From Alphaproteobacteria bacterium (GTDB lineage: Bacteria > Pseudomonadota > Alphaproteobacteria > SHVW01), in contig VGDO01000005.1 of NCBI GenBank assembly GCA_016869645.1, positions 6,885 through 70,884 on the forward strand: a DNA stretch of 64,000 nt, given 5' to 3'. Shown piece after piece: positions 1,832 through 47,247 of the stretch. Position 1 is the stretch's first letter. Every line of letters begins with the position of its first letter. A model generated the notes under the pieces. It made no database searches. It worked only from the letters and a program-made list of their open reading frames with translations, and was not told where the DNA came from. Position numbers and translations under genes: made by a program.

Positions 1832-2854
1832 CTACGAAACTGCGCCGACACCCGCGAGACCGAGCTCGCTGGCGCGATGGCAGGCGACGAGAGCCCCCTC
1901 GGCCGTCGGCGCGAGCACCGGCACTTCGACCTTGCAGCGCTCGACCGCATAGCGGCAGCGCGGATGAAAGGCGCAGCCGGCCGGCGTGTTCGACGGGTCG
2001 GCCACCTCGCCCTCGAGCACGATGCGCTTGGCGCGCTGGCGCGGATCGGGCACCGGAACAGCCGACAGCAGAGCCTCGGTATAGGGATGCTTGGGCGCAG
2101 CGAAGAGCGTTGCCGTCGGCGCGATCTCGACGATGCGCCCGACATACATGACCGCGACCCGATGGCTGACATGCTTCACGACCGAGAGGTCGTGCGCAAC
2201 GAACAGGTAGGAAAGGCCCAAACGGTCCTGCAGCTCGAGCATCAGGTTGATGATCTGCGCCTGGACCGAGACATCGAGGGCTGAAACCGGCTCGTCGGCG
2301 ACGATCAGGGCCGGGTTGAGCGCGAGCGCGCGCGCAATGCCGATGCGTTGGCGCTGCCCGCCCGAAAAGGCATGGGGGAACCGGTTCATGTAGGCGCGCG
2401 GCAGCTGCACGACGTCGAGCAGCTCGGCGATGCGCTGGCGCCGTGTCGCGAGATCGCCTATGCGATTGACCAGCAGCGGCTCGCCGATGATGTCGGAGAT
2501 CGTCATGCGCGGATTGAGCGAGGAATAGGGATCCTGAAAGATCATCTGCATCTGGCGGCGCAGCGGCCGGAGCTCCGAGCGCGCCAGGCTTGCGACATCG
2601 ACGTCGCGGTCCGCATCGGTGCGAAAGCGGATCACGCCCTCGGTCGGCTGCATCGCCCTGAGTATGCAGCGCGAGGTCGTGGTCTTGCCGCAGCCGGATT
2701 CGCCGACCAGCGACAGAGTCTCGCCGCGCGCAATGGTGAACGACACGTCGTCCACTGCCTTGACATGGCCGACGATGCGCCGCAGCAGGCCGCGGCGAAT
2801 CGGGAAATACTTCTTCAGCCGTTCGACCGAGAGGACGTTGTGCGCCGCAGTCAT
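1832..2854 (-). CDS. ABC transporter ATP-binding protein (DppF/OppF-like)
   Basis: Walker [10 protein letters not shown], signature LSGGQRQR, Walker B IVADEP, and a C-terminal oligopeptide-ABC tail (HPYT...CAFHPRC). Confidence 0.9.
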
Positions 2855-2864
2855 GGGGCCGCCA

Positions 2865-3878
2865 TCAAGCCGCCGTCTCGGTCGCCGCGCCGTAGAGGAA
2901 GCAGCGCACCTCGTGTGCGGCGTCGATGCGGTTCACCGGCGGCGTCGACTTGTCGCAGACGCCCGCCATGAAGCTGTGGCAGCGCGGGTAGTAAGGACAG
3001 CCCGGCGGCCGCGCATAGGGATGGGGAATGCTGCCGGCGATCGTGGCAAGCCGCGAGCGCGGCGCAGCCAGCACCGACGGGATCGAGCGCAGCAGGGCCT
3101 GCGTATAGGGATGCCGCGGCGCGTGAAAGATGGCATCGACCGGCCCCGATTCCACGATCTTGCCGAGATACATGACGGCGACCGAATCGGCCATCTCGGC
3201 GATGACGCCCATGTCGTGGGTGATCAGGATGACGGCAAGGTGACGCTCGGCCTGGAGCCGCCTGATGAGCTCGAGGATCTGGGCTTGCGTCGTTACGTCG
3301 AGCGCCGTGGTCGGCTCGTCGGCGATCAGGATGCCGGGCTCCGCGGCGAGCGCCAACGCGATCATGACGCGCTGGCGCAGGCCGCCTGAAAGTTCGAAGG
3401 AATAGGAATCGACGCGCTGCTGGGGCTGGGGAATGCCGACGAGCTGCAAGAGCTCGATGGCCCTCTCCCGCGCCTCCTTCGCCGTCAGCTTGCGATGGAG
3501 CCTGATCGCCTCGATGATCTGGTTGCCGACCGTGTGAAAAGCCGACAGCGAGCTCATCGGCTCCTGGAAGATATAGCCGATCGCGCCGCCCCGGATGTTG
3601 CGCATTTCCTGGCTCTTATCGTCGAGCTTGGCGAGATCGACGACGCGCCCATCGGCGCGGCGCAGCAGGATCTCGCCGCCTTCGACCCGGCCGGGCCGCT
3701 CGACGATGCGCAGGATCGAGCGCGCGGTCACGCTCTTGCCGCAGCCTGACTCGCCCACGATCCCGAGCGTACGGCCGGCATGGAGGTCGAATGACGCGCC
3801 GTCGACCGCGCGCACCACGCCCTCCTCGGGACGAAAATAGGTCACGAGATCGCGGACCGACAGGATCGGCTCAACCAT
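2865..3878 (-). CDS. ABC transporter ATP-binding protein (DppD/OppD-like)
   Basis: [30 protein letters not shown] and the HPYT...CPYYPRC tail. It overlaps the upstream permease stop by 8 nt. Confidence 0.9.
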
Positions 3879-5007
3879 AGGGATCGGCCGCGTCGCGCAG
3901 CCCGTCGCCCAGGAAGTTGAAGGCCAGGATGACGACGATCACCGGTACGGCGACGACGAGCAGCCATGGCGCCAATGCCAGCGCCTGGATGTCCTGCGCA
4001 TCCTGCAGCAGCACACCCCAGGAGATCGCCGGCGGCCGGAGGCCGAGACCGAGGAAGGACAGGGTCGTCTCGCTGATGATCATGGCCGGCAGCGCCAGGC
4101 TGATCGCGGCGATGATGTGCGACATGAAGGAGGGCACCATGTGCCGGAAGATGATGCGGAGCCGCGACGCGCCGGCGAGCTCCGCTGCGGTCACGAAATC
4201 CTCCTCGCGCAGCGCAAGGAAGCGGCCGCGCACCACGCGGGCGAGCTCGGTCCAGCCAATCAGCGAGATGATCACCGTGATCGCCATATAGACCTGGATC
4301 ACCGACCAGTCGTTGGGCAGCGCGGCGGCGAGGCCCATCCAGAGCGGAATGGTCGGGATCGAGCGCAACACCTCGATGATGCGCTGGATCACCGTGTCGA
4401 TCGCGCCGCCATAGAGACCGGAGATGCCGCCGAGCAGCACGCCGAGAAACAGCGAAAGCGCCACTCCAACCAACCCGATCGTCAGCGAGGTGCGCGTCGC
4501 CAGCATGAGGCGCGACCACACGTCGCGGCCGAGCTGATCCGTGCCGAGCAAGAACAACGCGTCCTCCGGCACGCCGCGATCGATGCCGAGCAGGTGACGC
4601 TTCGTCGCGATCAGGCCGAACAGCTCGTAGCCGTAGCCCTCGACGAACCAGGCGAGATAGCGCTTGTCCGACGGATCGGGCGCATAGACGAGCTTGAAGG
4701 TCCGCATGTCGCGCCGACCCTTGAGCGCGTAGACATGGGGCTTGAAGCTGCCATCCTCGTCGAACCAGTGGATCGTCTGCGGCGGGATGTAGCTGCGCGC
4801 AGAGTTGGTCGCGTGCGGCGACGTGATGGCGAGGAAGTCGGCGAACACCGCCACGAGATAGAAGAGGATGACGAGCACGCCGCTCGCGACGGCGAGCCGG
4901 TGCCGCCGCAGCCGCCACCAGGTGAGCTGAAGCTGGCTCGCGATCGCGATTTTCTCTTCGGCCGCCGTGACGAGCGGGACGGCCTGGTCGGCAACCGCGC
5001 CGCTCAT
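3871..5007 (-). CDS. ABC transporter permease (DppC/OppC-like, with N-terminal extension)
   Basis: The track ORF 3871..5778 is over-extended. The start was re-called at ATG 5007, which forms an ATGA overlap with the upstream permease stop. The BPD-transporter motif (EAA-like loop ...AAELAGASRLRIIFRHMVP) is present. Confidence 0.85.
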   Translation of the reverse strand: MSGAVADQAVPLVTAAEEKIAIASQLQLTWWRLRRHRLAVASGVLVILFYLVAVFADFLAITSPHATNSARSYIPPQTIHWFDEDGSFKPHVYALKGRRDMRTFKLVYAPDPSDKRYLAWFVEGYGYELFGLIATKRHLLGIDRGVPEDALFLLGTDQLGRDVWSRLMLATRTSLTIGLVGVALSLFLGVLLGGISGLYGGAIDTVIQRIIEVLRSIPTIPLWMGLAAALPNDWSVIQVYMAITVIISLIGWTELARVVRGRFLALREEDFVTAAELAGASRLRIIFRHMVPSFMSHIIAAISLALPAMIISETTLSFLGLGLRPPAISWGVLLQDAQDIQALALAPWLLVVAVPVIVVILAFNFLGDGLRDAADPYG

Positions 5008-5996
5008 TCGTGCATGCCCGCGCGGATGCGCGGGTCGATCCACATGAGAATCAGGTCGGATATGAACGTGCCGATCACGGTCAATATGCCGAGCAGAAGC
5101 ACGATCGTGCCTGCCAGGAACATGTCCTGGGCGAGCAGCGCGCGCAGCAGCAGCGGGCCGACCGTCGGCAGCGACAGCACGAGCGAGATGACGATCGAGC
5201 CGGAGACGACGAAGGGCAGCAGGTAGCCGATCGTGCTGGCGAAGGGGTTGAGCGCGGCGCGCACCGGGTACTTCATGACCGCCCGCCACTCGACGAGGCC
5301 GCGCGCACGCGCGGTCGTGACATAGGGCCGGCGCAGCTCGTCCAGCAGATTGGCGCGCATGATGCGGATGAGCTGCGCCGTGCCGGCCAGCGCCAGGATG
5401 ACGGCGGGCAGCGGCAGATGCTTCATCAGATCCCAGACCTTGCCCCAGGACCAGGGCGCCAGCTGGTAGTCGGACGAGAACAAGCCGCCGATGTTGAGAT
5501 CGAACAGCTTGAAGCCGAAATACATGATGATCAGCGCCAGCAGGAAGTTCGGCACCGCGATGCCGACGAAGCCGACGAAGGTGAAGATGTAGTCGGCGAA
5601 CGAGTACTGGCGCACGGCCGAGTAGATGCCGATCGGCAGCGCGATACCCCAGGTGATGATGATCGCCGCGAACGAGATCACGATGGTCATCCACAGCCGG
5701 TCGCCGATCACTTCGGTCACCGGCCGGTTCCATTCCATCGAGGCGCCGAAATCGCCCTGCACGACCCTGATGATCCACTTGCCGTACTGAACCCAGACAG
5801 GCTGGTCGAGCCCGTAAAGCTGTCGCAACGCCTGGGCCTCCTCGAAGCGGACGACCGACCCCGAGGCGGAAAGCTGCACGATATAGGCGTCGACGAAGTC
5901 GCCGGGCGGGAGCTGGATGATGACGAAGGTAACGACCGAGATCGCCCAGATGGTGAGGAGGGCGAGAATGAGGCGCCGGACGATGTAGGCGATCAT
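5004..5996 (-). CDS. ABC transporter permease (DppB/OppB-like)
   Basis: MIAYIVRRLILALLTIW... with six TM segments, which is the typical DppB architecture. Confidence 0.9.
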   Translation of the reverse strand: MIAYIVRRLILALLTIWAISVVTFVIIQLPPGDFVDAYIVQLSASGSVVRFEEAQALRQLYGLDQPVWVQYGKWIIRVVQGDFGASMEWNRPVTEVIGDRLWMTIVISFAAIIITWGIALPIGIYSAVRQYSFADYIFTFVGFVGIAVPNFLLALIIMYFGFKLFDLNIGGLFSSDYQLAPWSWGKVWDLMKHLPLPAVILALAGTAQLIRIMRANLLDELRRPYVTTARARGLVEWRAVMKYPVRAALNPFASTIGYLLPFVVSGSIVISLVLSLPTVGPLLLRALLAQDMFLAGTIVLLLGILTVIGTFISDLILMWIDPRIRAGMHE

Positions 5997-6054
5997 GCCG
6001 GCTCAGCCCCCAATTGTCGGGGGCTGAGCGGCATGTGCAGAGAGCAGTTCAGGG

Positions 6055-8115
6055 TCAATTCTTGTAGTACCAGGTCTCCGGATGCGCGCCGCCCGGCGTG
6101 CGGCAGTGCTGGGCGATGCAATTGCGCGACGGGACGTTGCCGAGCCGCTCGCTGACCAGCCTCACGCCCATCAGAGCCGGCGACTGGCCGACGGTTCCGA
6201 TCGCGTACTGCTGATCGATCAGGATCTTCCAGATCTCCTGCGCGGTCTTGACACGATCATCGGACTTCTGGCCGGCGGCGGACTGGTAGAGCTCGAAGAT
6301 CTTCATGATGTTCGGATCGTCGGGCTTCTTGCCCTGCGTGCCGCCCGAATTGAACCACTTGGCGTGCTCCGGACCCATGAACGCCTCGGTGGGATCGACC
6401 GGAATGGCGTGACGCGGGAAGAGATAAAGCAGCTCGGTCCCGCCATTGTTCCACACCATGATGTGGTGCTCGTTGTTCTGGGTCCGCGTGAAGGCGAGAT
6501 TGCGCTCAGTGTCCCGCACGTCGGCCTGGATGCCGACCTTGGCCCATTGATCGGCGACCATCTCGCTGATCTTGGGCCAGGGCAGGAAGGCTTGAACCGC
6601 CTGGACCTGCAGGCGCAGGCGCTGGCCGTTGTCGGTGCGCACGCGGAAGCCCTGGGCGTCCTTCTTGGCGAGCCCGATCGCATCGAGCATCTCGTTGGCC
6701 TTCTTCTGATCGAAAGTCGACCACTTCTCGCGCCAGCCGGGGCCCGGGAAGTAGGGCAGTGCCTCGCCCGGCGCCGTCGAGCCAGGGGTGGCGACGCCGA
6801 GCCAGAAGGTCTCGTTGAGCTGCTTGCGATCGACCGCGAGCGACAGCGCGCGCCGGAAGTCGGCGTTGCGCAGCCATTTCGCGATCTCGGGATCGGCCTC
6901 GAAGCTCTGGTTGAAATGATAGATCGCGTCGGTGCCGTTGAGCGCCAGGTCGAGATGGACCTTGTACTTGCCGCGCGTCTGGTTCTCCAGGATGACCGGC
7001 AGCTTGCCGATGTCGATGTGGCGCTCCTGCAGGTCGTACTCGCCGGCCATGGCGCGCAGGTTGAGAACCTCGAGGTTCTCCGCGAGCGTCATGGTGACGC
7101 GATCGAGATAGGGCAGCTGGTTGCCCGCCGGGTCGACGACCCAGTAGAACGGGTTGCGCTCCATGACCCAGATCGCGTTGTTGATCGGCTGGACCGTGCG
7201 CCACGGCCCGAGCACGGGAAGCGCCGGGTTGAGCGTCCAGTCCTTCTTGGCATGGAAGCGCGTCAGCCAGGTGTCGAAACCCTCCGCCTTGGCCGCGGCA
7301 TTGGCGGCCTCGACGCCGCCGGCATATTTCGGCAGGAACTGCTTGAGATAGTGCGCCGGCGCATAGGCGCCATGGCTGCGCTTGTTCGACTGCCGCACCG
7401 CCTGGCCGCCGCCGATGAGGGTGTCGCCCGCCATCAGGTCTTCGAACAGGTAGAAGGGCACGTCGAACACGAAATTGACCGTGTAGTCGTCGACCTTGAC
7501 GATCCGGCCCGGCTTGCCCTGCGGGGTCATATCGGGAATGCCCTGGGGCAGGATGTCCTTGTTCGAGTAGATGTCCTCGAACCAGAAGACGAAGTCGTTG
7601 GCCGTCATCGGCGCACCGTCCGACCATTTCAGGCCCTTGCGCAGAAAGAGCGTGAAGGTCTTGCCGTCGTCACTCATCTTCCACGCCTTGGCGAGCGACG
7701 GGTTTGGCTTGGCGCCGGTGTGATCGACGAGGAGCGGACGGTCGGAGGCGTTCAGGCGATTGCCGTTCTCGTCGTCGCCCGGGCCGGTGAAGCCGCGCCG
7801 CCACGTGCCGCCGTACTTGCCGATCTCGCGCACCGGCTTGATGACCATCAGATCCTCGGGCAGGCGATCCTTGACCGGCGGCAGCTTGCCTTGCTTCACG
7901 AGTTCGGCCAGCTGCGGCGCCTCGTTGAAGGTCTTCGGCCACTGTGCCGGGTCGGTGATGATGGTGATGCCCTCGGGCTGGCCGACCAGCCCCGACTGGC
8001 TGAGCGAACTCTGAGCCAGGGTTTCGGGCGCCGACGCAATACCGAAGACGAGCGCGGTGCCCAGCAGCAACCGGGCCAGCATGCTTCGCCCGAGTGTCAC
8101 AGTGCCGAGATTCAT
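6055..8115 (-). CDS. ABC transporter substrate-binding protein, family 5 (large, ~686 aa)
   Basis: Start re-called at ATG 8115 (GGGAGG RBS), giving the signal peptide MNLGTVTLGRSMLARLLLGTALVFGIASA. The body shows SBP_bac_5 homology. It lies upstream of permB on the same strand, so this operon is flanked by two SBP genes. Confidence 0.85.
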   Translation of the reverse strand: MNLGTVTLGRSMLARLLLGTALVFGIASAPETLAQSSLSQSGLVGQPEGITIITDPAQWPKTFNEAPQLAELVKQGKLPPVKDRLPEDLMVIKPVREIGKYGGTWRRGFTGPGDDENGNRLNASDRPLLVDHTGAKPNPSLAKAWKMSDDGKTFTLFLRKGLKWSDGAPMTANDFVFWFEDIYSNKDILPQGIPDMTPQGKPGRIVKVDDYTVNFVFDVPFYLFEDLMAGDTLIGGGQAVRQSNKRSHGAYAPAHYLKQFLPKYAGGVEAANAAAKAEGFDTWLTRFHAKKDWTLNPALPVLGPWRTVQPINNAIWVMERNPFYWVVDPAGNQLPYLDRVTMTLAENLEVLNLRAMAGEYDLQERHIDIGKLPVILENQTRGKYKVHLDLALNGTDAIYHFNQSFEADPEIAKWLRNADFRRALSLAVDRKQLNETFWLGVATPGSTAPGEALPYFPGPGWREKWSTFDQKKANEMLDAIGLAKKDAQGFRVRTDNGQRLRLQVQAVQAFLPWPKISEMVADQWAKVGIQADVRDTERNLAFTRTQNNEHHIMVWNNGGTELLYLFPRHAIPVDPTEAFMGPEHAKWFNSGGTQGKKPDDPNIMKIFELYQSAAGQKSDDRVKTAQEIWKILIDQQYAIGTVGQSPALMGVRLVSERLGNVPSRNCIAQHCRTPGGAHPETWYYKN

Positions 8116-8328
8116 GATGCCTCCCTTTCCACCGGATTGGCGATGCGTCCGGCGTTCTTGCTGCATTAGAGCACATGTTCGGCAGACGGGGTCAACCCCA
8201 GGCAAATGTGCTGATTGTTGGCAAATCGACGACGAAACCTGCCGTGCCGGCGCCGCAACGACAAGCGTTCGGAATCGGCAACTTCGACTTGCTGGCTATC
8301 TGATCTTGCAATGGGTTGCTGACGCGCG

Positions 8329-8652
8329 TCAGCGGAGCAATCGATGCTGAAGGAGGGTGCGGATATCCCTTCTTCCGTCCAGGACGCAGTAGATGAGAAC
8401 GCGCCGACCGTCTATCCGGTAGACAATTCGGCAGGGCTTCCAGTGGATCTCCCGGTAGTCCGAGATCCCGATTCGTGCCAGTTCCTTCGGCACGTTGCCA
8501 CGATCGGGAAAGATCGAGAGCTTTCGGCAGGTCCTCTCGAGGTTAGCCAAGATATGCGCGGCTCGATCGATGGCGTCATACGCGGCGACATGCCGGCAGA
8601 TGTCCTCGATATCTCGCTCGGCATCATCGGTCATCAAGACCTGAAATGCCAT
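8329..8652 (-). CDS. Type II toxin, RelE/ParE family
   Basis: 107 aa beginning MAFQVLMTDDAERDIEDICRHVAAYD and ending ...YRIDGRRVLIYCVLDGRRDIRTL. This is the ParE-like pattern. It sits 9 nt downstream of the antitoxin gene on the same strand, in a low-GC segment. Confidence 0.75.
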   Translation of the reverse strand: MAFQVLMTDDAERDIEDICRHVAAYDAIDRAAHILANLERTCRKLSIFPDRGNVPKELARIGISDYREIHWKPCRIVYRIDGRRVLIYCVLDGRRDIRTLLQHRLLR

Positions 8653-8661
8653 GACTTGGGA

Positions 8662-8934
8662 TCAGGGTTTGATGCGGCCGCGAATGCGTGCAAACGCCGC
8701 TCGTGCCGGACCCAGCCTGCCCGTGATGACGCTCTGGTTGCCGAGCGCTAGGATCTTCAGCAGTGCCAGAGTTTCCTGTTCCTGCTCAAAGCTGGCGATG
8801 TCCTGCAACACGGCCTTCGCTTCGCCGCGGACGGTGAGAATGACTGGCTCGCCATGCTCATCGAGTCCGCGAATGACCTCCGGAGCGTGAGCCTTGAGAT
8901 AGCTGATTGGCTTGACCTTGCCGGCGAGCTTCAT
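8662..8934 (-). CDS. Type II antitoxin, Phd/YefM family
   Basis: 90 aa beginning MKLAGKVKPISYLKAHAPEVIRGLDEHGEPVILTVRGEAKAVLQDI, which is the Phd/YefM fold signature. It lies immediately upstream of the ParE-like gene. Confidence 0.75.
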   Translation of the reverse strand: MKLAGKVKPISYLKAHAPEVIRGLDEHGEPVILTVRGEAKAVLQDIASFEQEQETLALLKILALGNQSVITGRLGPARAAFARIRGRIKP

Positions 8935-8999
8935 TGCCGACCTCCTTGCTGATCGGACCTATTTTAGTCCGGATTCAGTCCGATGGGAAGCTTCCCGGG

Positions 9000-9578
9000 T
9001 CACGCCGGCCGGGACTGAGTCCCATGTGCGATGTGCTCGAACGATTTCCTGCATTCGTCAACAACCGAGTCGAGCCACTGAACATACTTTCCACAAGCAG
9101 TCACGATGTCCTGACCGGCAAGCTCTTCGATCTCTGAAAAGACCCCTTTGACGGTGCATAGGGCGATCACGCGCCTCTCCTTTAGCATTGCCCTGTTCGC
9201 CTCGGTGCCATCAATTGGAACGATTTCGACTTTGCCTGGCGCGTCAGTTAGAAGCACAGCCGCAATGTTTGGATTTGATGGAGGAATTTCGATTGTCGCT
9301 CGAGCTTGCGCCGATACTGTGCCGCGCTTCTGAGATCGATTCCTGGCGTCAGTCATTGCGCCGAGAATCGGTTCGATCTCTGCGGTTGGCGCTTTGCTGT
9401 CGTACCATTCGTTCCAGCCCGCGACATCGGCGTATTCCGCCTTCATTACCCAGGTCACGCTTCTTGCCGAGCTGATGAAGGCGTTGAGGTAGTAGTCGAA
9501 CTCAGGAAACTTTGGACGTGCTTCCAGGTGGCGAAGGAAAAATCGCGCCTCCTCAAGCTTGCTTTCCGTCAATGTCAT
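9000..9578 (-). CDS. Hypothetical protein (192 aa), orphan gene in the low-GC islet
   Basis: Clean ORF with AT-richer codon usage (~53% GC against ~67% in flanking DNA). It runs the same way as the TA pair, 65 nt upstream of it. No family was recognised. An R-x4-H motif (RFFLRH) occurs at residues 12-17. Confidence 0.55.
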   Translation of the reverse strand: MTLTESKLEEARFFLRHLEARPKFPEFDYYLNAFISSARSVTWVMKAEYADVAGWNEWYDSKAPTAEIEPILGAMTDARNRSQKRGTVSAQARATIEIPPSNPNIAAVLLTDAPGKVEIVPIDGTEANRAMLKERRVIALCTVKGVFSEIEELAGQDIVTACGKYVQWLDSVVDECRKSFEHIAHGTQSRPA

Positions 9579-9633
9579 CTTTCACCATGAGATTGTGCAG
9601 CACCAATCATTCTTGCCAACGCCCTCGGGGTAG

Positions 9634-11658
9634 CTACCGCACCCGCTTCCGGAAGCCCGTCGTCGTGAAGCGCTGATGCCCGTGCTTGCGGCCGAGCCGC
9701 TTGCCTTCGCCGCCGCCCGTGCCGGTGCCGGCAGGCTGCCACAGCGGCACGAGCTGGTGCTTGCCCGGGCCGATCAGGTCGGCGCGGCCCATGCGCTTCA
9801 GCGCGTCGCGCAGCAGCGGCCAGTTCTCCGCGTCGTGATAGCGCAGGAAGGCCTTGTGCAGCCGGCGCTGACGCAGATTGCGCACGATGGGAACCGGCTC
9901 GGATGCGCCGCGCCGGACCGCGCGCAAGGGGTTGACGCCGGAATGGTACATCGCGGTCGCCAGCGCCATGGGCGAGGGCAGGAAGGTCTGTACCTGGTCG
10001 GCGCGATAGCGGTTGCGCTTCAGCCACAGCGCGAGGTTCATCATGTCCTCGTCGGTCGTGCCCGGGTGCGCCGCGATGAAGTAGGGGATCAGGAAGTATT
10101 CCTTGCCGGCCTGCTTCGCCGCCTGGTCGAACAGCTGCTTGAAGCGCTCGTAGGCGCCGATGCCGGGCTTCATCATCTTGGTGAGCGGCCCGTCCTCGGT
10201 GTGCTCCGGTGCGATCTTGAGATAGCCGCCGACGTGATGCGTCACCAGCTCGCGCACATAGGCCGGGCTCTTGACCGCGAGGTCGTAGCGCACGCCCGAG
10301 GCGACCATCACCTTCTTGACGCCGGGCACCTGGCGCACCTTGCGGTAGAGCCCGATCAGCGCCTCGTGGCTCGTGTTCAGGTTCTCGCAGATGCCGGGAT
10401 AGACGCAGGACGGCCGCCGGCAGGCTGATTCGATCTTCGGGTCCTTGCACGCCATGCGGTACATGTTGGCGGTTGGCCCGCCGATATCGGAGATGATGCC
10501 GGTGAAGCCCTTGGTCTTGTCGCGGATCTCGCCGATCTCGCGTACGACCGATTCTTCCGAGCGGCTCTGGATGATGCGGCCCTCGTGCTCGGTGATCGAG
10601 CAGAACGAGCAGCCGCCGAAGCAGCCGCGCATGATGGTGACCGAGAAGCGGATCATGTCCCAGGCGGGGATCTTGGCATCGCCATAGCGGGGGTGCGGCG
10701 CCCGCGCATAGGGCAGGCCGTAGATGCCGTCCATCTCGGGCGTGGTCAGCGGGATCGGCGGCGGCGTCAGCCACAGCTCGCGGTCGCCGTGGCGCTGCAC
10801 CAGTGCCCGCGCATTGCCCGGATTGCTTTCCCGGTGGAGCACGCGGCTGGCACGCGCATAGGCTTCGGGGCTCTTCTCGACGTGATCGTAGGCGGGCAGG
10901 CGCACGACCGTGTTGCCCGGCCGCAGGCGCGCGCCCTCGTCGGCCGAATCGATGTCCTCGGCGCTGGCTTCGGTCCAGCCCTCCGGCACCGATGATTTCA
11001 GAAGCGCCACGCCGCGGATGTCGTCGAGCTCGGAAGGAGCGGCACCCTGGGCCATGCGATGCGCCACCTCGACGATGGCGCGCTCGGCATTGCCGTAGAG
11101 AAGAATGTCGCCCTTGGCGTCGGCCAGGATCGAGCGGCGCACCTTGTCCGACCAGTAGTCGTAATGCGCGATGCGGCGCAGCGACGCCTCGATGCCGCCC
11201 AGGACCAGCGACACGTCGCGATAGGCCTCGCGGCAACGCTGGGCATAGACGATGACGGAGCGGTCCGGCCGCTTGCCGCCCTCGCCGTCGGGCGTGTAGC
11301 TGTCATTGTGCCGGAGGCGACGGTCGGCCGTGTAGCGGTTGACCATGGAATCCATGTTGCCGCCGGTGATGCCGAAGAAGAGCACCGGCCGGCCGAGCGC
11401 CTTGAACGGCTCCGCACTCTGCCAGTCAGGCTGGGCGATGACGCCGACGCGGAAGCCCTGCGCCTCGAGCAGCCGGCCGACCAGCGCCATGCCGAAGCTC
11501 GGGTGGTCGATATAGGCGTCGCCGGTCACCAGCACGATGTCGCACGCATCCCAGCCGAGCTCGTCCATCTCGGCGCGCGACATGGGCAGGAACGGCGCCG
11601 TGCCGAACCGGTGCGCCCAGTGCTTGCGGTAGGAAAAGAGCGGCTTGGCCTGGTCCAT
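9634..11658 (-). CDS. ygiQ: YgiQ family radical SAM protein (UPF0313)
   Basis: The N-terminus ([62 protein letters not shown]) matches YgiQ. The radical-SAM CxxxCxxC motif (CFGGCSFCS) and the ~674 aa length also fit. Confidence 0.9.
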
Positions 11659-11773
11659 GGCGGAAGCTTGTGAGCCATGGCTGAGCCGGCGTCAATCGCC
11701 GTTCGTCGCGATGGACCGTCACACGGCGGCAGACATAAGATAGGACTCTGGTCGACCTCAGAATTTGGATCGC

Positions 11774-12202
11774 ATGGCCCTTTCTAAAAAGCGCAAACCG
11801 GCTCGGCGAAAATCAGCGCGTCAGGAAATCTCGGTGCCTGGCCTCAACCCGCCCATCAGCCACTATACGGACGCGGTTCGCTTCGGAAATCTGCTGTTCT
11901 TGTCCGGGCTGGCACCGCTTGACGCCAAAGGACGTTTGGTTGGCGGCAGCGATCCCGCCAAGCAGACCCTTAAGATTTTCCGCAACATGAAGCGAATTCT
12001 GGATGCGGCGGGCGTCGGCTTTGGCGATGTTCTCAAGGTGACCGTGTATCTGACGCATATCGCCGACCGGCCGAAGATCAATCCTGTACGTCAGGCATTC
12101 TTTGGCAAATCGCGACCGGCCAGCACGCTCGTCGAGGTCAGCAACCTGGTGATTCCAGGCATGCGCGTCGAAATCGAGGCGGTAGTCGGGTTGCCTGATT
12201 GA
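11774..12202 (+). CDS. RidA/YjgF family reactive-intermediate deaminase
   Basis: ...PISHYTDAVRFGNLLFLSGLAPLD...VTVYLTHIADRPKINPVRQAFFG...RVEIEAVV is a YjgF/chorismate-mutase-like signature. The track ORF starts at TTG 11765, and the first ATG is 11774. Confidence 0.8.
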   Translation: MALSKKRKPARRKSARQEISVPGLNPPISHYTDAVRFGNLLFLSGLAPLDAKGRLVGGSDPAKQTLKIFRNMKRILDAAGVGFGDVLKVTVYLTHIADRPKINPVRQAFFGKSRPASTLVEVSNLVIPGMRVEIEAVVGLPD

Positions 12203-12265
12203 ACTATGAGCAGCGCTACCAAGCATGACCGGCATCTGATCTGACCGAAAAGCGCCGCTCGCCTC

Positions 12266-13006
12266 ATGTCCACAGTCACCAAGCAGGCGTCGCCGCTCGG
12301 CACCATCGCGATCCTCGAGAACAGGAAGACCGGTGTCCTTATCTATCAGCAGGGCCACTGCCATCAGAGCGAGGCAGACGCCAATGGCGTCAGCATATCG
12401 GCCTATATCCACGCGTTGTTCGGCCTGCTGCAGCAGGCCGGCAGCCGCGATGTCCTGCTGATCGGCTGCGGCGGCGGCACGCTCGCGACGATGCTCCATC
12501 GCGCGGGCGCGACGGTGACGATGGTCGACATCGACGAGACCGCCTTCGACATCGCACGGCGCTACTTCAAGCTGCCGAAGGCGGTCGAATGCTACATTGC
12601 CGATGGCGAGACGTTCCTGGCCCAACGGCGCCACCGCTACGATGCCATCGTGCTTGACGCCTATATCGGCACCGAGATCCCCGCACAGTTCCTTGAGCCA
12701 CGCTTTTTCAAGCTGGCGCGCACGCGCTTGAAGAAGCCGCGCGGATGCCTGTTCGCCAATGCCTATATCGTCAACAGCCGCGACCGCAAGGCGGACCGGC
12801 TGGCGACGGCCATGGGCAGGGTCTTTTCCGGCGTACGCCTGCTGGACGAGAAGGGCAGCACGAACCGCAACGCGATTGCCATGGCGGGCGCGGTCGCGGA
12901 GCTCGTGCCACCGTCACTGATCATGAAACCCAAGGCTGATGTCGACGACATCGCCAACACGCTGAAGCGCATGCGATTCCGGAGCTGGCGACCGCGCGCG
13001 TCATGA
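12266..13006 (+). CDS. Spermidine synthase-like / SAM-dependent methyltransferase-fold protein
   Basis: A GxGxG motif (LLIGCGGGTLAT) followed by VDIDETAFDIARRYF and DAIVLDAY. This is the aminopropyltransferase-like fold. Confidence 0.7.
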   Translation: MSTVTKQASPLGTIAILENRKTGVLIYQQGHCHQSEADANGVSISAYIHALFGLLQQAGSRDVLLIGCGGGTLATMLHRAGATVTMVDIDETAFDIARRYFKLPKAVECYIADGETFLAQRRHRYDAIVLDAYIGTEIPAQFLEPRFFKLARTRLKKPRGCLFANAYIVNSRDRKADRLATAMGRVFSGVRLLDEKGSTNRNAIAMAGAVAELVPPSLIMKPKADVDDIANTLKRMRFRSWRPRAS

Positions 13007-27461: not shown

Positions 27462-28334
27462 TCAAGTTCCTGGCCGTATCCCGTCGAGGCCGTCGACGTC
27501 GCGCGCCGAGACGCAGATGCTGGCGAGCGTTCGCTCCTCTTCATAGGGCCAGGGCCGGCCGCGATGGAGCACGGCGCGCTCGTCCCAGATCAGTACGTCG
27601 CCCGGCCGCCATGCGTGGGTGTAGACCGTTCCGGGGCGGGTCGCGAAGGCGATCAGTTCGTCTATCAGCGCGCGGCCTTCAGCCTCCGGCAGCCCGTCGA
27701 CCGCGAAGGCATGCGAGGCGATATAGAGTGAATCCTCGCCGTTGATGGGATTGCGCCAGACCGCCTTCCAGGCCTGGCTGCCCCATTTCGTGTAGCGCTC
27801 CAGCCTGGCGAGCTCGGCCGACACCTTGGCGCGAGAATGCGCGGCGCTGTGATGAACCACCGCATGCCTCGCCTTAGCCTTGAGCGATTCGGGCAGATCG
27901 CGCCAGGCGGCGCGCGTTGAGGCGAATTCCGTTTCGCCGCCGCGCGAGCTCAGAACGCAGGCCGCGAGAATGTTGATGAGCGCGGGCACGGGCAGAAACG
28001 TGCTGTCGGTGTGCCAGAGCTGATTGGCGATCAGGTTCAGCGTGACGTGATCATCGGGTGCCGCGATCCGATCGTCGGCCATTCGGTTGGTCACGTTGTC
28101 CATGCGCGGCTCCGGACCGTTGCGTCCCTGCGAGCGGTCCTCGATCGGTCCGAACAGAGCGCCGAGCGCTAGGTGGGCTTCATCGTCGAGCTGCTGATTG
28201 CGGAAGAGTAGGAGCGAATGGGATTCAAACGCGGCGCGGATCTCGGGATACCCGTCATCCGCAGTCACGCGCGTCAGATCGACGTCGTGGATCTCGACGC
28301 CGAAGCGGGAATGAAGCGGTGTGCTGCGCATCAA
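27462..28334 (-). CDS. TauD/TfdA family Fe(II)/2-oxoglutarate-dependent dioxygenase
   Basis: FGVEIHDVDL...YPEIRAAFESHSLLLFRNQQL...WHTDSTF...HAW is the TauD/TfdA pattern, including the HxD facial triad region. Confidence 0.85.
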   Translation of the reverse strand: MMRSTPLHSRFGVEIHDVDLTRVTADDGYPEIRAAFESHSLLLFRNQQLDDEAHLALGALFGPIEDRSQGRNGPEPRMDNVTNRMADDRIAAPDDHVTLNLIANQLWHTDSTFLPVPALINILAACVLSSRGGETEFASTRAAWRDLPESLKAKARHAVVHHSAAHSRAKVSAELARLERYTKWGSQAWKAVWRNPINGEDSLYIASHAFAVDGLPEAEGRALIDELIAFATRPGTVYTHAWRPGDVLIWDERAVLHRGRPWPYEEERTLASICVSARDVDGLDGIRPGT

Positions 28335-28469
28335 GATTGACGCTAGAGATCAAGCGACATCGGGTCAATGCGGCAGGTTCCCTGGCGCATGACTGTCACA
28401 TAGCGGCGTCGCAATTCCGAAGATCGGCGTCGTACGGGCATTTGACGGGTCGATTCTCCGACACCTATC

Positions 28470-30140
28470 ATGACCGCCAACAACGCGGTTCACCAGCAAG
28501 CAGCCGCCGCCTCAAGCGAACAAAACAGACACAGGGAGAGGACCACGCGCGAAATAGACTATTGGACCCAACAGGTTGCGAAGGGCCGTATCTTCAGGCG
28601 CGAGTTCATGGGGCGCGCCGCGGCGCTCGGCGTCTCCACGGCTATGGCGACCAGCATGCTGTCGGCGGCCGGCGTGGCGCAGCAGCCCAAGCGCGGCGGC
28701 CTCGCGCGCTTCGGCCTGGCGCACGGTGCGACCACCGACTCGCTGGATCCGGGCACCTATCCCGACACCTTCTCGCAATGCGCGTTCTCGGGCGCGATGT
28801 CGAACACGCTGACCGAGCTCGATCCGGACGGCAAGGTGATCGGCGATCTCGCCGAGAGCTTCGAGCCGTCGAACAGCGCCAAGACCTGAGTCTTCCGCCT
28901 GCACAAGGGACTGACCTTCCACAACGGCAAGACCGTGACCGCGGCCGATGCCGTCGCTTCGATTCAGTACCACATGGGTGCCAACTCGAAATCGGCGGCG
29001 AAGTCGCTGGTCGCGGCCATCACCGACATCAAGGCCGACGGCCCGAACAACGTGGTGATCACGCTGCGCGAAGGCAGCGCCGATTTCGCCGCCATCATGA
29101 GCGACTACCATCTCGTGATCTCGCCGGCGAAGTCCGATAGCACGTCGGACTGGCAATCGGGCGTGCGCACCGGCCCGTTCGTCTATGACCGCTTCACGCC
29201 CGGCGTCAGCGCCAAGCTGAAGCGCAATCCCAACTACCACCGCTCGGGCATGCCCTATTTCGACGAGGTCGAATTCCTGGCGCTGACCGATGTCGCGGCG
29301 CGCACCAACGCGCTGACCACGGGCGAGACCCACTTCATGAGCCGCTGCGACCTCAAGACCGTCCACCTGCTCAAGCGCAATCAGAACGTGAATGTCTACG
29401 AGCTGACCGGCCTCGGTCACTATGCGTTCCCGATGAACACGACCGTGGCGCCCTTCGACAATGTCGATGTGCGCAAGGCGCTCAAATACGCGGTTGACCG
29501 CCAGGACATCGTCAACAAGATCTTCCTCGGCTATGCCGCGGTCGCCAACGACAATCCGATCGCGCCGAGCATCCGCTATGCGATCGACCCGCTGCCCAAG
29601 CACGTCTACGACATCGACAAGGCCAAGTTCCATCTGAAGCAGGCCGGCCTGTCCAATCTCAAGGTCGCGATCAACGTCGCCGACGCCGCCTTCAACGGCG
29701 CGGTCGACACGGCGGTGCTCTACAAGGAGCACGCGGCCAAGGCCGGCATCGACATCGAGGTCGTGCGCGAGCCGAACGACGGCTATTGGGACAAGGTGTG
29801 GCTCAAGAAGCCCTGGTGCGCGACCTATTGGGGCGGCCGCGTCACCTGCGACTGGATGTTCACCACGGCCTATGCCGAGGGTGCGGCCTGGAACGAGACG
29901 TTCTGGAAGCACCCCAAGTTCAACCAGCTCCTGCTGCAGGCGCGCTCCGAGACCGACGACAAGAAGCGCGCAGACATGTATGCCGAGATGCAGCAGCTCG
30001 TGCACGACGATGGCGGCGCCGTCGTCCTCGTCTTCTACAAATATGTCAGCGCGCATTCGAAGAAGCTGGCCCATGGCCGCATCTCCAGCGTCTTCGACCT
30101 CGACGGTCTGCGCATCGCCGAGCGGTGGTGGCTGACCTGA
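28470..30140 (+). pseudogene. Family-5 ABC substrate-binding protein gene interrupted by one in-frame TGA (28887-28889) at a conserved Trp position
   Basis: Track ORFs 28470..28889 and 28935..30140 share a frame. The sequence AAG ACC TGA GTC TTC CGC reads ...AKT*VFRLHKGLTFHNGK, where family-5 SBPs have KTW-x-F-x-LRKG. A Tat-like signal (RREFMGRAAALGV) lies upstream. Confidence 0.7.
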
Positions 30141-47054: not shown

Positions 47055-47247
47055 ATTCAAGCATAGAAGGGGTATTTGAGCGAGTCAAACGGGGGTCAAG
47101 ACCGTGCGAACCACCGAAGCCGAACAGCGATGCGGCTGTCCCGGAGCCGGTCCCCAGAGGACCGGCGCTTTTCCGTTTTGGTGTAGGATCGCGCACATCG
47201 AATGTCGGTGCGCCCGCTCGTGCGCACGCCGCGCTCGGGAGTCGCGA

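Follow-up and report, generated by a model that had tools for sequence, protein, structure and literature searches.

PfiT and PfiA of prophage Pf4 are an experimentally characterised pair in which the toxin is of the ParE/RelE superfamily and the antitoxin of the Phd type, with a C-terminal extension in PfiT, an unusual A6T4 stoichiometry and phospho-regulation among their described traits (PMC7264888, PMC13048266). In proteins of the HEPN superfamily, helix 3 ends in an Rx4-6H motif whose R is directly followed by a polar residue (N, D or H); helix 2 has a conserved acidic residue, and inserts between helices 2 and 3 are frequent (PMC3710099). Ea47 of phage lambda is an early, non-essential accessory protein with no known function (PMC3224144, PMC10695390). 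Here we describe a small locus that touches on all of these, positions 8206-9633 of a 64,000-nucleotide (nt) stretch of contig VGDO01000005.1 from an uncultured alphaproteobacterium (assembly GCA_016869645.1; the whole of this stretch is called the window below). The locus holds a PfiT-like toxin gene, a PfiA-like antitoxin gene and a gene for a protein of 192 amino acids (aa) that belongs to the family PF26900.

We read this segment as two self-contained cassettes joined in a small composite of horizontal origin, which lies at a synteny breakpoint: a type II toxin-antitoxin (TA) pair, and a single-gene PF26900 module that would encode a diverged HEPN-type nuclease or conflict protein. We place the probability of this reading at roughly 60%. 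The main yield is the 192-aa protein itself, an orphan in the initial annotation of this DNA, which can now be placed in a large uncharacterised family sharing a domain with lambda Ea47.

Composition of the segment and its toxin-antitoxin pair

The guanine plus cytosine (GC) content of positions 8206-9633 is 56.8%, against 66.6% for the whole window. This gap of about 10 points exceeds the 5 or so that the initial annotation had named as the least on which its claim of a compositionally distinct islet could stand. Values within the segment are 57.7% for the toxin gene, 61.2% for the antitoxin gene, 54.6% for the PF26900 gene and 53-58% for the intergenic DNA, and the flanking genes have 64.7% (solute-binding protein, SBP) and 68.2% (ygiQ). 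When all frames of 1428 nt in the 64 kb are compared (mean 66.6%, standard deviation 2.3%), the lowest starts at 8192, and 0.05% of them are as low as the islet. In tetranucleotide usage, too, no other part of the window departs as far from the window average (z = 6.7). GC at third codon positions (GC3) is 0.71 in the toxin gene, 0.73 in the antitoxin gene and 0.61 in the gene of the 192-aa protein, compared with 0.89 in the SBP gene and 0.91 in ygiQ. The segment is compositionally foreign, and this conclusion is well supported.

Two milder dips were seen elsewhere in the window. The second-lowest GC stretch is 11561-12474 (500-nt minimum 56.8%), where a RidA/L-PSP (RidA-like) gene on the plus strand, 11765-12202, has a GC3 of 0.67 against about 0.9 in its neighbours; ygiQ thus has atypical small genes on both of its sides. 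The third and mildest dip, at 28110-28610 (59.8% in 500 nt), coincides with a junction of convergent or overlapping long open reading frames (ORFs).

The three minus-strand genes first noted in the segment are all present in the ORF list, and the toxin and the antitoxin have Pfam matches. The toxin gene (ParE/RelE superfamily, 107 aa) occupies 8329-8652 on the minus strand. Its product matches PF05016 (ParE_toxin) with an E-value of 2.8e-15 and 57.1 bits against a cutoff of 23, and among solved structures its best relative is PfiT (9w3a_A, E 2.2e-7), with ParE structures coming next at E-values that are marginal. The score against the NCBIfam model RelE_StbE fell below cutoff, and the sequence is nearer to ParE and PfiT than to RelE_StbE. 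The antitoxin gene (Phd/YefM family, 90 aa) lies at 8662-8934 on the same strand; its product matches PF02604 (PhdYeFM_antitox; E 1.2e-11, 44.6 bits against a cutoff of 29.8) and the NCBIfam model phd_fam (TIGR01552; 31.1 bits against 20.8), and its best solved relative is PfiA (9w3a_E, E 3e-6). The family names proposed initially for the two proteins, ParE/RelE-like and Phd/YefM-like, therefore hold. The best matches of the two, PfiT and PfiA, are two chains of one complex (9w3a), from the Pf4 prophage.

The antitoxin gene precedes the toxin gene, with 9 nt from the phd stop to the parE start, and an AAGGAGG ribosome-binding site is found upstream of the phd ATG. Judged by protein families, gene order and spacing, the two genes are a predicted type II TA operon of canonical form, and the pair adds one more member to a well-known kind. 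Upstream of phd there is a spacer of 65 nt that contains a putative promoter and operator (8954-8996, minus strand), recognised by a consensus scan and by palindromes read from the sequence. The promoter-like site is TTCCCA-17-TAAAAT, with the -35 at 8989-8984 and the -10 at 8966-8961. A perfect 12-bp palindrome, GGGAAGCTTCCC, at 8996-8985 overlaps this predicted promoter, and an inverted repeat, CGGAC-N8-GTCCG, at 8971-8954 lies over the predicted -10. Autoregulation through an operator at the promoter is usual in type II TA systems, and because the layout here matches, we regard the palindromes as a putative TA operator.

Close relatives of the pair are found on plasmids. Homologues of the toxin were recovered from 137 plasmids (records at E<=1e-8), mostly of Rhizobium and Agrobacterium, and the identity is 54-56% aa over the full length among the best-listed plasmid matches. 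A Phd/YefM gene adjoins the toxin homologue in 15 of the 15 plasmid matches listed, and these genes are annotated as RelE/ParE and Phd/YefM pairs. In several of these plasmid records the TA homologue is found no more than about 4 kb from where the record starts.

We propose that this first cassette is of the PfiA/PfiT type and may be of plasmid-like origin. A labile Phd would bind and neutralise ParE and would probably repress the operon via the promoter palindromes. If Phd were lost, either with the DNA or when host expression is shut off in infection, ParE would be freed and growth would stop; the pair would in this manner stabilise the islet, and it may abort phage infection. ParE toxins are gyrase poisons and the target of RelE is ribosome-bound mRNA. 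The toxin described here is presumably a gyrase poison, a property that is less well defined for PfiT-like toxins than for other ParE toxins.

The PF26900 protein and its probable homology to HEPN nucleases

The second cassette is the gene at 9000-9578 (minus strand), whose 192-aa product carries PF26900 (Phage_lambda_Ea47), the domain at the N-terminus of lambda Ea47, and is a candidate HEPN-like effector. The exact protein has a precomputed PF26900 annotation with no weak mark, that is, at E<=1e-5. Nothing usable was obtained when it was compared with our copy of Pfam (which is without the PF26900 model), NCBIfam, PADLOC and PDB sequences, and tblastn against 50,697 phage records gave no match. 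A word-indexed search found 19 relatives, and an exhaustive HMMER profile search found 3385 cluster representatives (50% identity) at E<=1e-3, 149 of them at E<=1e-30. The protein is thus no orphan but a new member of an existing, functionally blank Pfam family, the representatives of which are nearly all stand-alone proteins of about 180-200 aa.

The link to lambda Ea47 was also recovered by hhalign, which aligned residues 5-102 with residues 7-108 of Ea47 (probability 88%, E 2.9e-6). The two proteins have in common the motifs ARxVT, (G)W/Y..WY and RNxxxK, and several PF26900 members match phrog_19262, the phrog of Ea47. A full-length Ea47 orthologue was considered and rejected, the architecture of about 410 aa being absent and the N-terminal 100 or so residues alone aligning. 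In the lambda genome (NC_001416, 22686-26973), ea47 has as neighbours ea31, which carries the annotation HNH endonuclease, and ea59, which carries that of an AAA ATPase. The pairing of an ATPase with an HNH protein resembles Septu-type defence pairs, and the lambda b region may itself be a small defence island.

Of particular interest is the predicted fold of the 192-aa protein. A confident AlphaFold2 (AF2) model built from the family alignment (predicted local distance difference test 84, predicted template modelling score 0.76) has helices at 2-19, 26-49, 55-61, 69-84 and 158-186, forming an up-down four-helix bundle, and an insert at 85-157 of lower confidence with some strand content. In 152 PF26900 representatives, R39, W58 and R79 are invariant, and E48 (97%), E10 (95%) and Y165 (94%) are conserved. 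E48 lies in helix 26-49, the second helix of the model. Position 84 is K in 142 of the 152 representatives and H in 10. In the islet protein, the motif R79-N-R-S-Q-K84 falls at the C-terminus of core helix 3; in the H-containing members it reads RNTSIH, RDISIH, RDLTIH or RDINIH (R[N/D]xxIH), H being present in most of one subgroup. The K/H swap occurs between relatives that are 47-53% identical. The HEPN features cited above (PMC3710099) have counterparts in the 192-aa protein, which for the Rx4-6H motif is a candidate counterpart with K in place of H.

The genomic context of the family was surveyed using precomputed neighbourhoods of seven members, two IMG/VR contigs and 74 further metagenome loci. 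The seven neighbourhoods include a tyrosine integrase; DarT/DarG beside NurA/HerA; a TraG coupling protein; Abi_C, HNH_2 and DUF6602 on the upstream side and a type I restriction-modification system on the downstream side; a protein kinase, RlaP and a PIN toxin-antitoxin system; SIR2_2; and a group of small genes without annotation, together with HNH and EVE/NmeDI_C. One of the two IMG/VR contigs places the gene between a primase-helicase and a terminase, in a low-GC prophage. Annotated neighbours at the metagenome loci include phage integrases, rve transposases, a MobL relaxase, a C5 methylase, HepT, an ADP-ribosylglycohydrolase, AbiJ (twice), PD-Lambda-1, Hachiman HamB and PDC-M34B. No neighbour family recurs among the 141 neighbours beyond near-duplicate contigs, and no Phd or ParE homologue was found in 86 PF26900 loci covering 420 kb. 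The pattern is that of an accessory gene found in islands and prophages without a partner.

At three of the loci (P0019; contigs L094, L095 and L096, for example L094 5603-7647), the gene of a PF26900 member of 240 aa begins 3 nt downstream of an unknown ORF of 131 aa, and a SIR2_2 gene comes 37 nt after it. This arrangement is conserved in the three contigs and may be a branch-specific three-gene operon.

PF26900 combines an R-x4-K/H motif, invariant and placed where HEPN proteins have their active site, with partner-less contexts of the defence or mobile type. Homology between PF26900 and HEPN is probable, and because of this homology the 192-aa protein may have RNase activity. HEPN active sites are composite, and for that reason the PF26900 protein would probably be a dimer. 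As a diverged HEPN-type four-helix-bundle nuclease, it would use the R-[N/D]-x3-[K/H] motif together with E48 of helix 2 as a metal-independent RNase-like site, in which R79, K84 and E48 would build a surface for RNA cleavage or RNA binding. The variable insert 85-157 would serve as a specificity or sensor element, and the protein would act alone, in abortive infection or exclusion. In its widest form, the proposal is that PF26900 is an unrecognised HEPN branch, usually with lysine in place of the catalytic histidine (R-[N/D]-x3-K/H), whose stand-alone proteins of about 190 aa are single-gene abortive-infection or exclusion RNases. We offer this first functional hypothesis for Ea47 tentatively, as a possibility that falls well short of an even chance.

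A number of results weigh against a HEPN-type nuclease in a defence setting. The islet protein carries K84 and not the catalytic H. None of the HEPN Pfam families was matched by 86 PF26900 members; there is a single PaREP1 match, at E 0.12; hhalign against the sequence of a HepT neighbour gave a probability of 0.1%, and phmmer of that HepT sequence against the PDB came back empty. Foldseek searches of the AF2 model against the PDB and viral models (BFVD) returned nothing significant (E>=1), and in PADLOC-DB 2.0 none of the three islet proteins had a match at E<=1. The set of 141 non-redundant neighbours, taken within two genes on each side, is descriptive and without background control, and many of the neighbours are ordinary metabolic or housekeeping genes. 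No functional link between Ea47 and HEPN was found in the literature searched, where the single co-mention is incidental.

Several of these points would also fit a helical-bundle protein that stems from phages and has no catalytic activity, for instance an anti-defence factor, regulator or adaptor, in which the R...K/H motif is a binding site. In 93% of the top-150 members K stands where the catalytic H would be, the family has neither a profile-level tie to HEPN families nor a significant Foldseek match, some of its members are in prophages, and lambda Ea47 is early, non-essential and of no known function. This explanation survives best among the alternatives, but we consider it doubtful: K and H replace each other at a site that is invariant in all other respects, the members with H have a textbook R[N/D]xxxH, and most of the members found lie in bacterial islands and not in phages.

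Origin of the segment and independence of its cassettes

The nuclease-type reading of the PF26900 gene is one part of our interpretation; the other is that the segment was acquired horizontally. We infer this from the foreign composition together with the mobile nature of both gene families. The islet sits at a synteny breakpoint between ygiQ and an ABC (ATP-binding cassette) transporter operon. On one side, the gene of a YgiQ-family radical SAM protein (9634-11658, minus strand; Radical_SAM_N at E 6.5e-133, plus Radical_SAM and DUF3362 in Pfam) has an intact 3' end, its relatives aligning through residue 672 of 674, and is separated from the Ea47-like gene by 55 nt. On the other side, the SBP_bac_5 gene (6055-8115, minus strand; PF00496, E 1e-57), which has a GGGAGG ribosome-binding site at its start at 8115, is the first of a five-gene operon of the peptide/nickel type that runs from about 8017 down to 1842 of the window.

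The closest homologues of the SBP are 89% and 86% identical in aa. With an nt identity of 83-85%, the operon (window 1842-8017) is collinear with two contigs from other metagenomes, L099 (8078-14240) and L102 (8036-12614). Upstream of the SBP gene, one of these relatives has DUF4126/MlaC and the other HipA with an unknown gene, and neither has ygiQ. Since the operon is collinear in the three contigs while its flanks differ, it is a conserved block in variable surroundings, which has either been rearranged or itself been transferred. From the SBP start at 8115 to about 8245 the window aligns weakly with the upstream region of L099 and L102, and above about 8245 the alignment ceases. This suggests that native DNA may reach to about 8245, so that the right-hand edge of the foreign DNA would lie approximately in the non-coding interval 8246-8328.

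In L102 (5665-7850, the contig with the 86% identical SBP), HipA (Couple_hipA, HipA_C) and a 333-aa unknown protein are encoded directly upstream of the SBP gene; a toxin-type gene thus occupies the equivalent spot in another lineage too.

Some observations speak against acquisition or are neutral on it. No relative with conserved flanks, in which an islet-free site could have been seen, was found by the YgiQ scan, by exact-protein look-ups or among the SBP homologues. The YgiQ scan covered one genome per species (185,579 genomes), where the best relatives are 83-85% identical in aa, and at 80 YgiQ loci neither an SBP gene nor an islet gene nor any other gene of the window was near ygiQ. Exact-protein look-ups of YgiQ, ParE and the 192-aa protein led only to contigs with 99.9-100% identity to the window, all with the islet and of the same population; as all the islet copies found come from this one population, they are uninformative on ancestry. 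A search for flanking direct repeats gave no credible pair, only short GC-rich repeats at chance level.

The initial annotation had reported no integrase, no tRNA and no obvious direct repeats, and the ORF list, the tRNA and Rfam scans and the repeat search all agree with it. No integrase ORF is present in the segment, no tRNA gene was called within about 37 kb of it, and at gathering thresholds Rfam had no match in the whole window. Its view of a horizontally acquired addiction or defence islet is still the best reading, and stands as regards the foreign composition and the mobile gene families.

An ancestral, native islet, whose low GC would reflect weak codon adaptation of short, poorly expressed TA and accessory genes, is an unlikely alternative explanation of the same data. 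It agrees with the lack of integrase, tRNA and repeats, with the presence of the islet unchanged in every contig of the population, and with the low GC3 (0.67) of the nearby short RidA-like gene at 11765-12202. The GC3 drop of 20-30 points is, however, the extreme of the 64 kb, both gene families occur in patches, on plasmids, prophages and islands, and in the nearest relatives available the corresponding place upstream of the SBP operon is taken by other genes.

The segment consists of two independent cassettes, the TA pair and the PF26900 gene, and is not a three-gene system, because the two have separate promoter-like sites and the 86 other PF26900 loci lack Phd and ParE. The site predicted by consensus scan for the Ea47-like gene is TTGGCA-16-CACAAT (9592-9619, minus strand), 14 nt upstream of its ATG; the scan found two promoter-like sites in 2 kb, against 0.4 expected by chance. 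A tripartite system, with the Ea47-like protein as a sensor, regulator or second toxin acting with Phd/ParE, could appeal to the adjacency of the genes on one strand with a 65-nt spacer, to the low GC common to all three and to the lack of a predicted terminator between them, but we reject it as very improbable, since no Phd/ParE homologue lies near any of the 86 other PF26900 members, the family has no recurrent neighbour, each unit has a promoter-like site of its own, the plasmid TA homologues are annotated as plain two-gene pairs, and GC3 differs (0.61 against 0.72).

Several further observations concern the junctions and the wider window. Independent assemblies from four sequencing runs (Logan contigs L001-L003 and L085) break alike, at 9694 in three runs and at 7495 in two, and single-nucleotide polymorphisms fall at 9626, 9354, 8955 and 8217-8218. 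The shared break at 9694, just inside the 3' end of ygiQ, may reflect strain-level branching at the islet junction. A variant islet in contig L084 was dismissed, the differing gene calls being annotation artefacts, and a 14-nt GC-rich repeat pair at 8242 and 9717 (93% identical) was judged to be due to chance because the genome has 66% GC. ARAGORN calls a 92-nt tRNA-Gln(CTG) at 47103-47194 (minus strand), where Rfam sees no tRNA, and this call is therefore probably a false positive or an aberrant gene.

Comparison with known systems

Small TA islets are common in alphaproteobacterial chromosomes, and the one described here is an ordinary small accessory islet with one interesting uncharacterised gene. 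Were PF26900 confirmed as a nuclease or defence gene, a single-gene system would be added to the anti-phage catalogue, and a function would be assigned to lambda ea47, to our knowledge one of the last unannotated lambda genes and unexplained since the lambda genome was sequenced.

The TA pair resembles PfiT/PfiA (PA0729/PA0728.1 of Pseudomonas aeruginosa Pf4; PDB 9w3a) in its toxin and antitoxin families and in being carried on mobile DNA, but the sequence similarity is distant and the islet pair is not in a filamentous prophage. It also resembles the ParE/Phd stabilisation modules of Rhizobium and Agrobacterium repABC plasmids, with a toxin 54-56% identical among the best-listed matches and an adjacent Phd/YefM gene. 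In contrast to these modules, the islet pair is chromosomal, in a 64-kb window with housekeeping genes, and has no plasmid backbone genes nearby.

With the HEPN RNases (such as HepT/MNT, AbiV, AbiJ and RnlA; PMC3710099), the PF26900 protein shares a four-helix bundle in which helix 2 is followed by an insert, and its occurrence as a stand-alone gene in defence islands. It differs from them in the K that replaces H in the islet protein and most PF26900 members, in some 70 residues inserted between the motif and helix 4, and in having neither a profile-level link to them nor an adjacent MNT or other antitoxin.

The likeness to lambda Ea47 (NP_040606, 410 aa, b region) is confined to the N-terminal 100 or so residues, which are homologous. 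The islet protein, at 192 aa, is without the C-terminal 300 or so residues of Ea47 and has in their place a variable insert and one closing helix, and E48 is not conserved in Ea47. What the two genes share beyond this domain is their setting: both are accessory genes, located in a variable region beside genes of the defence type.

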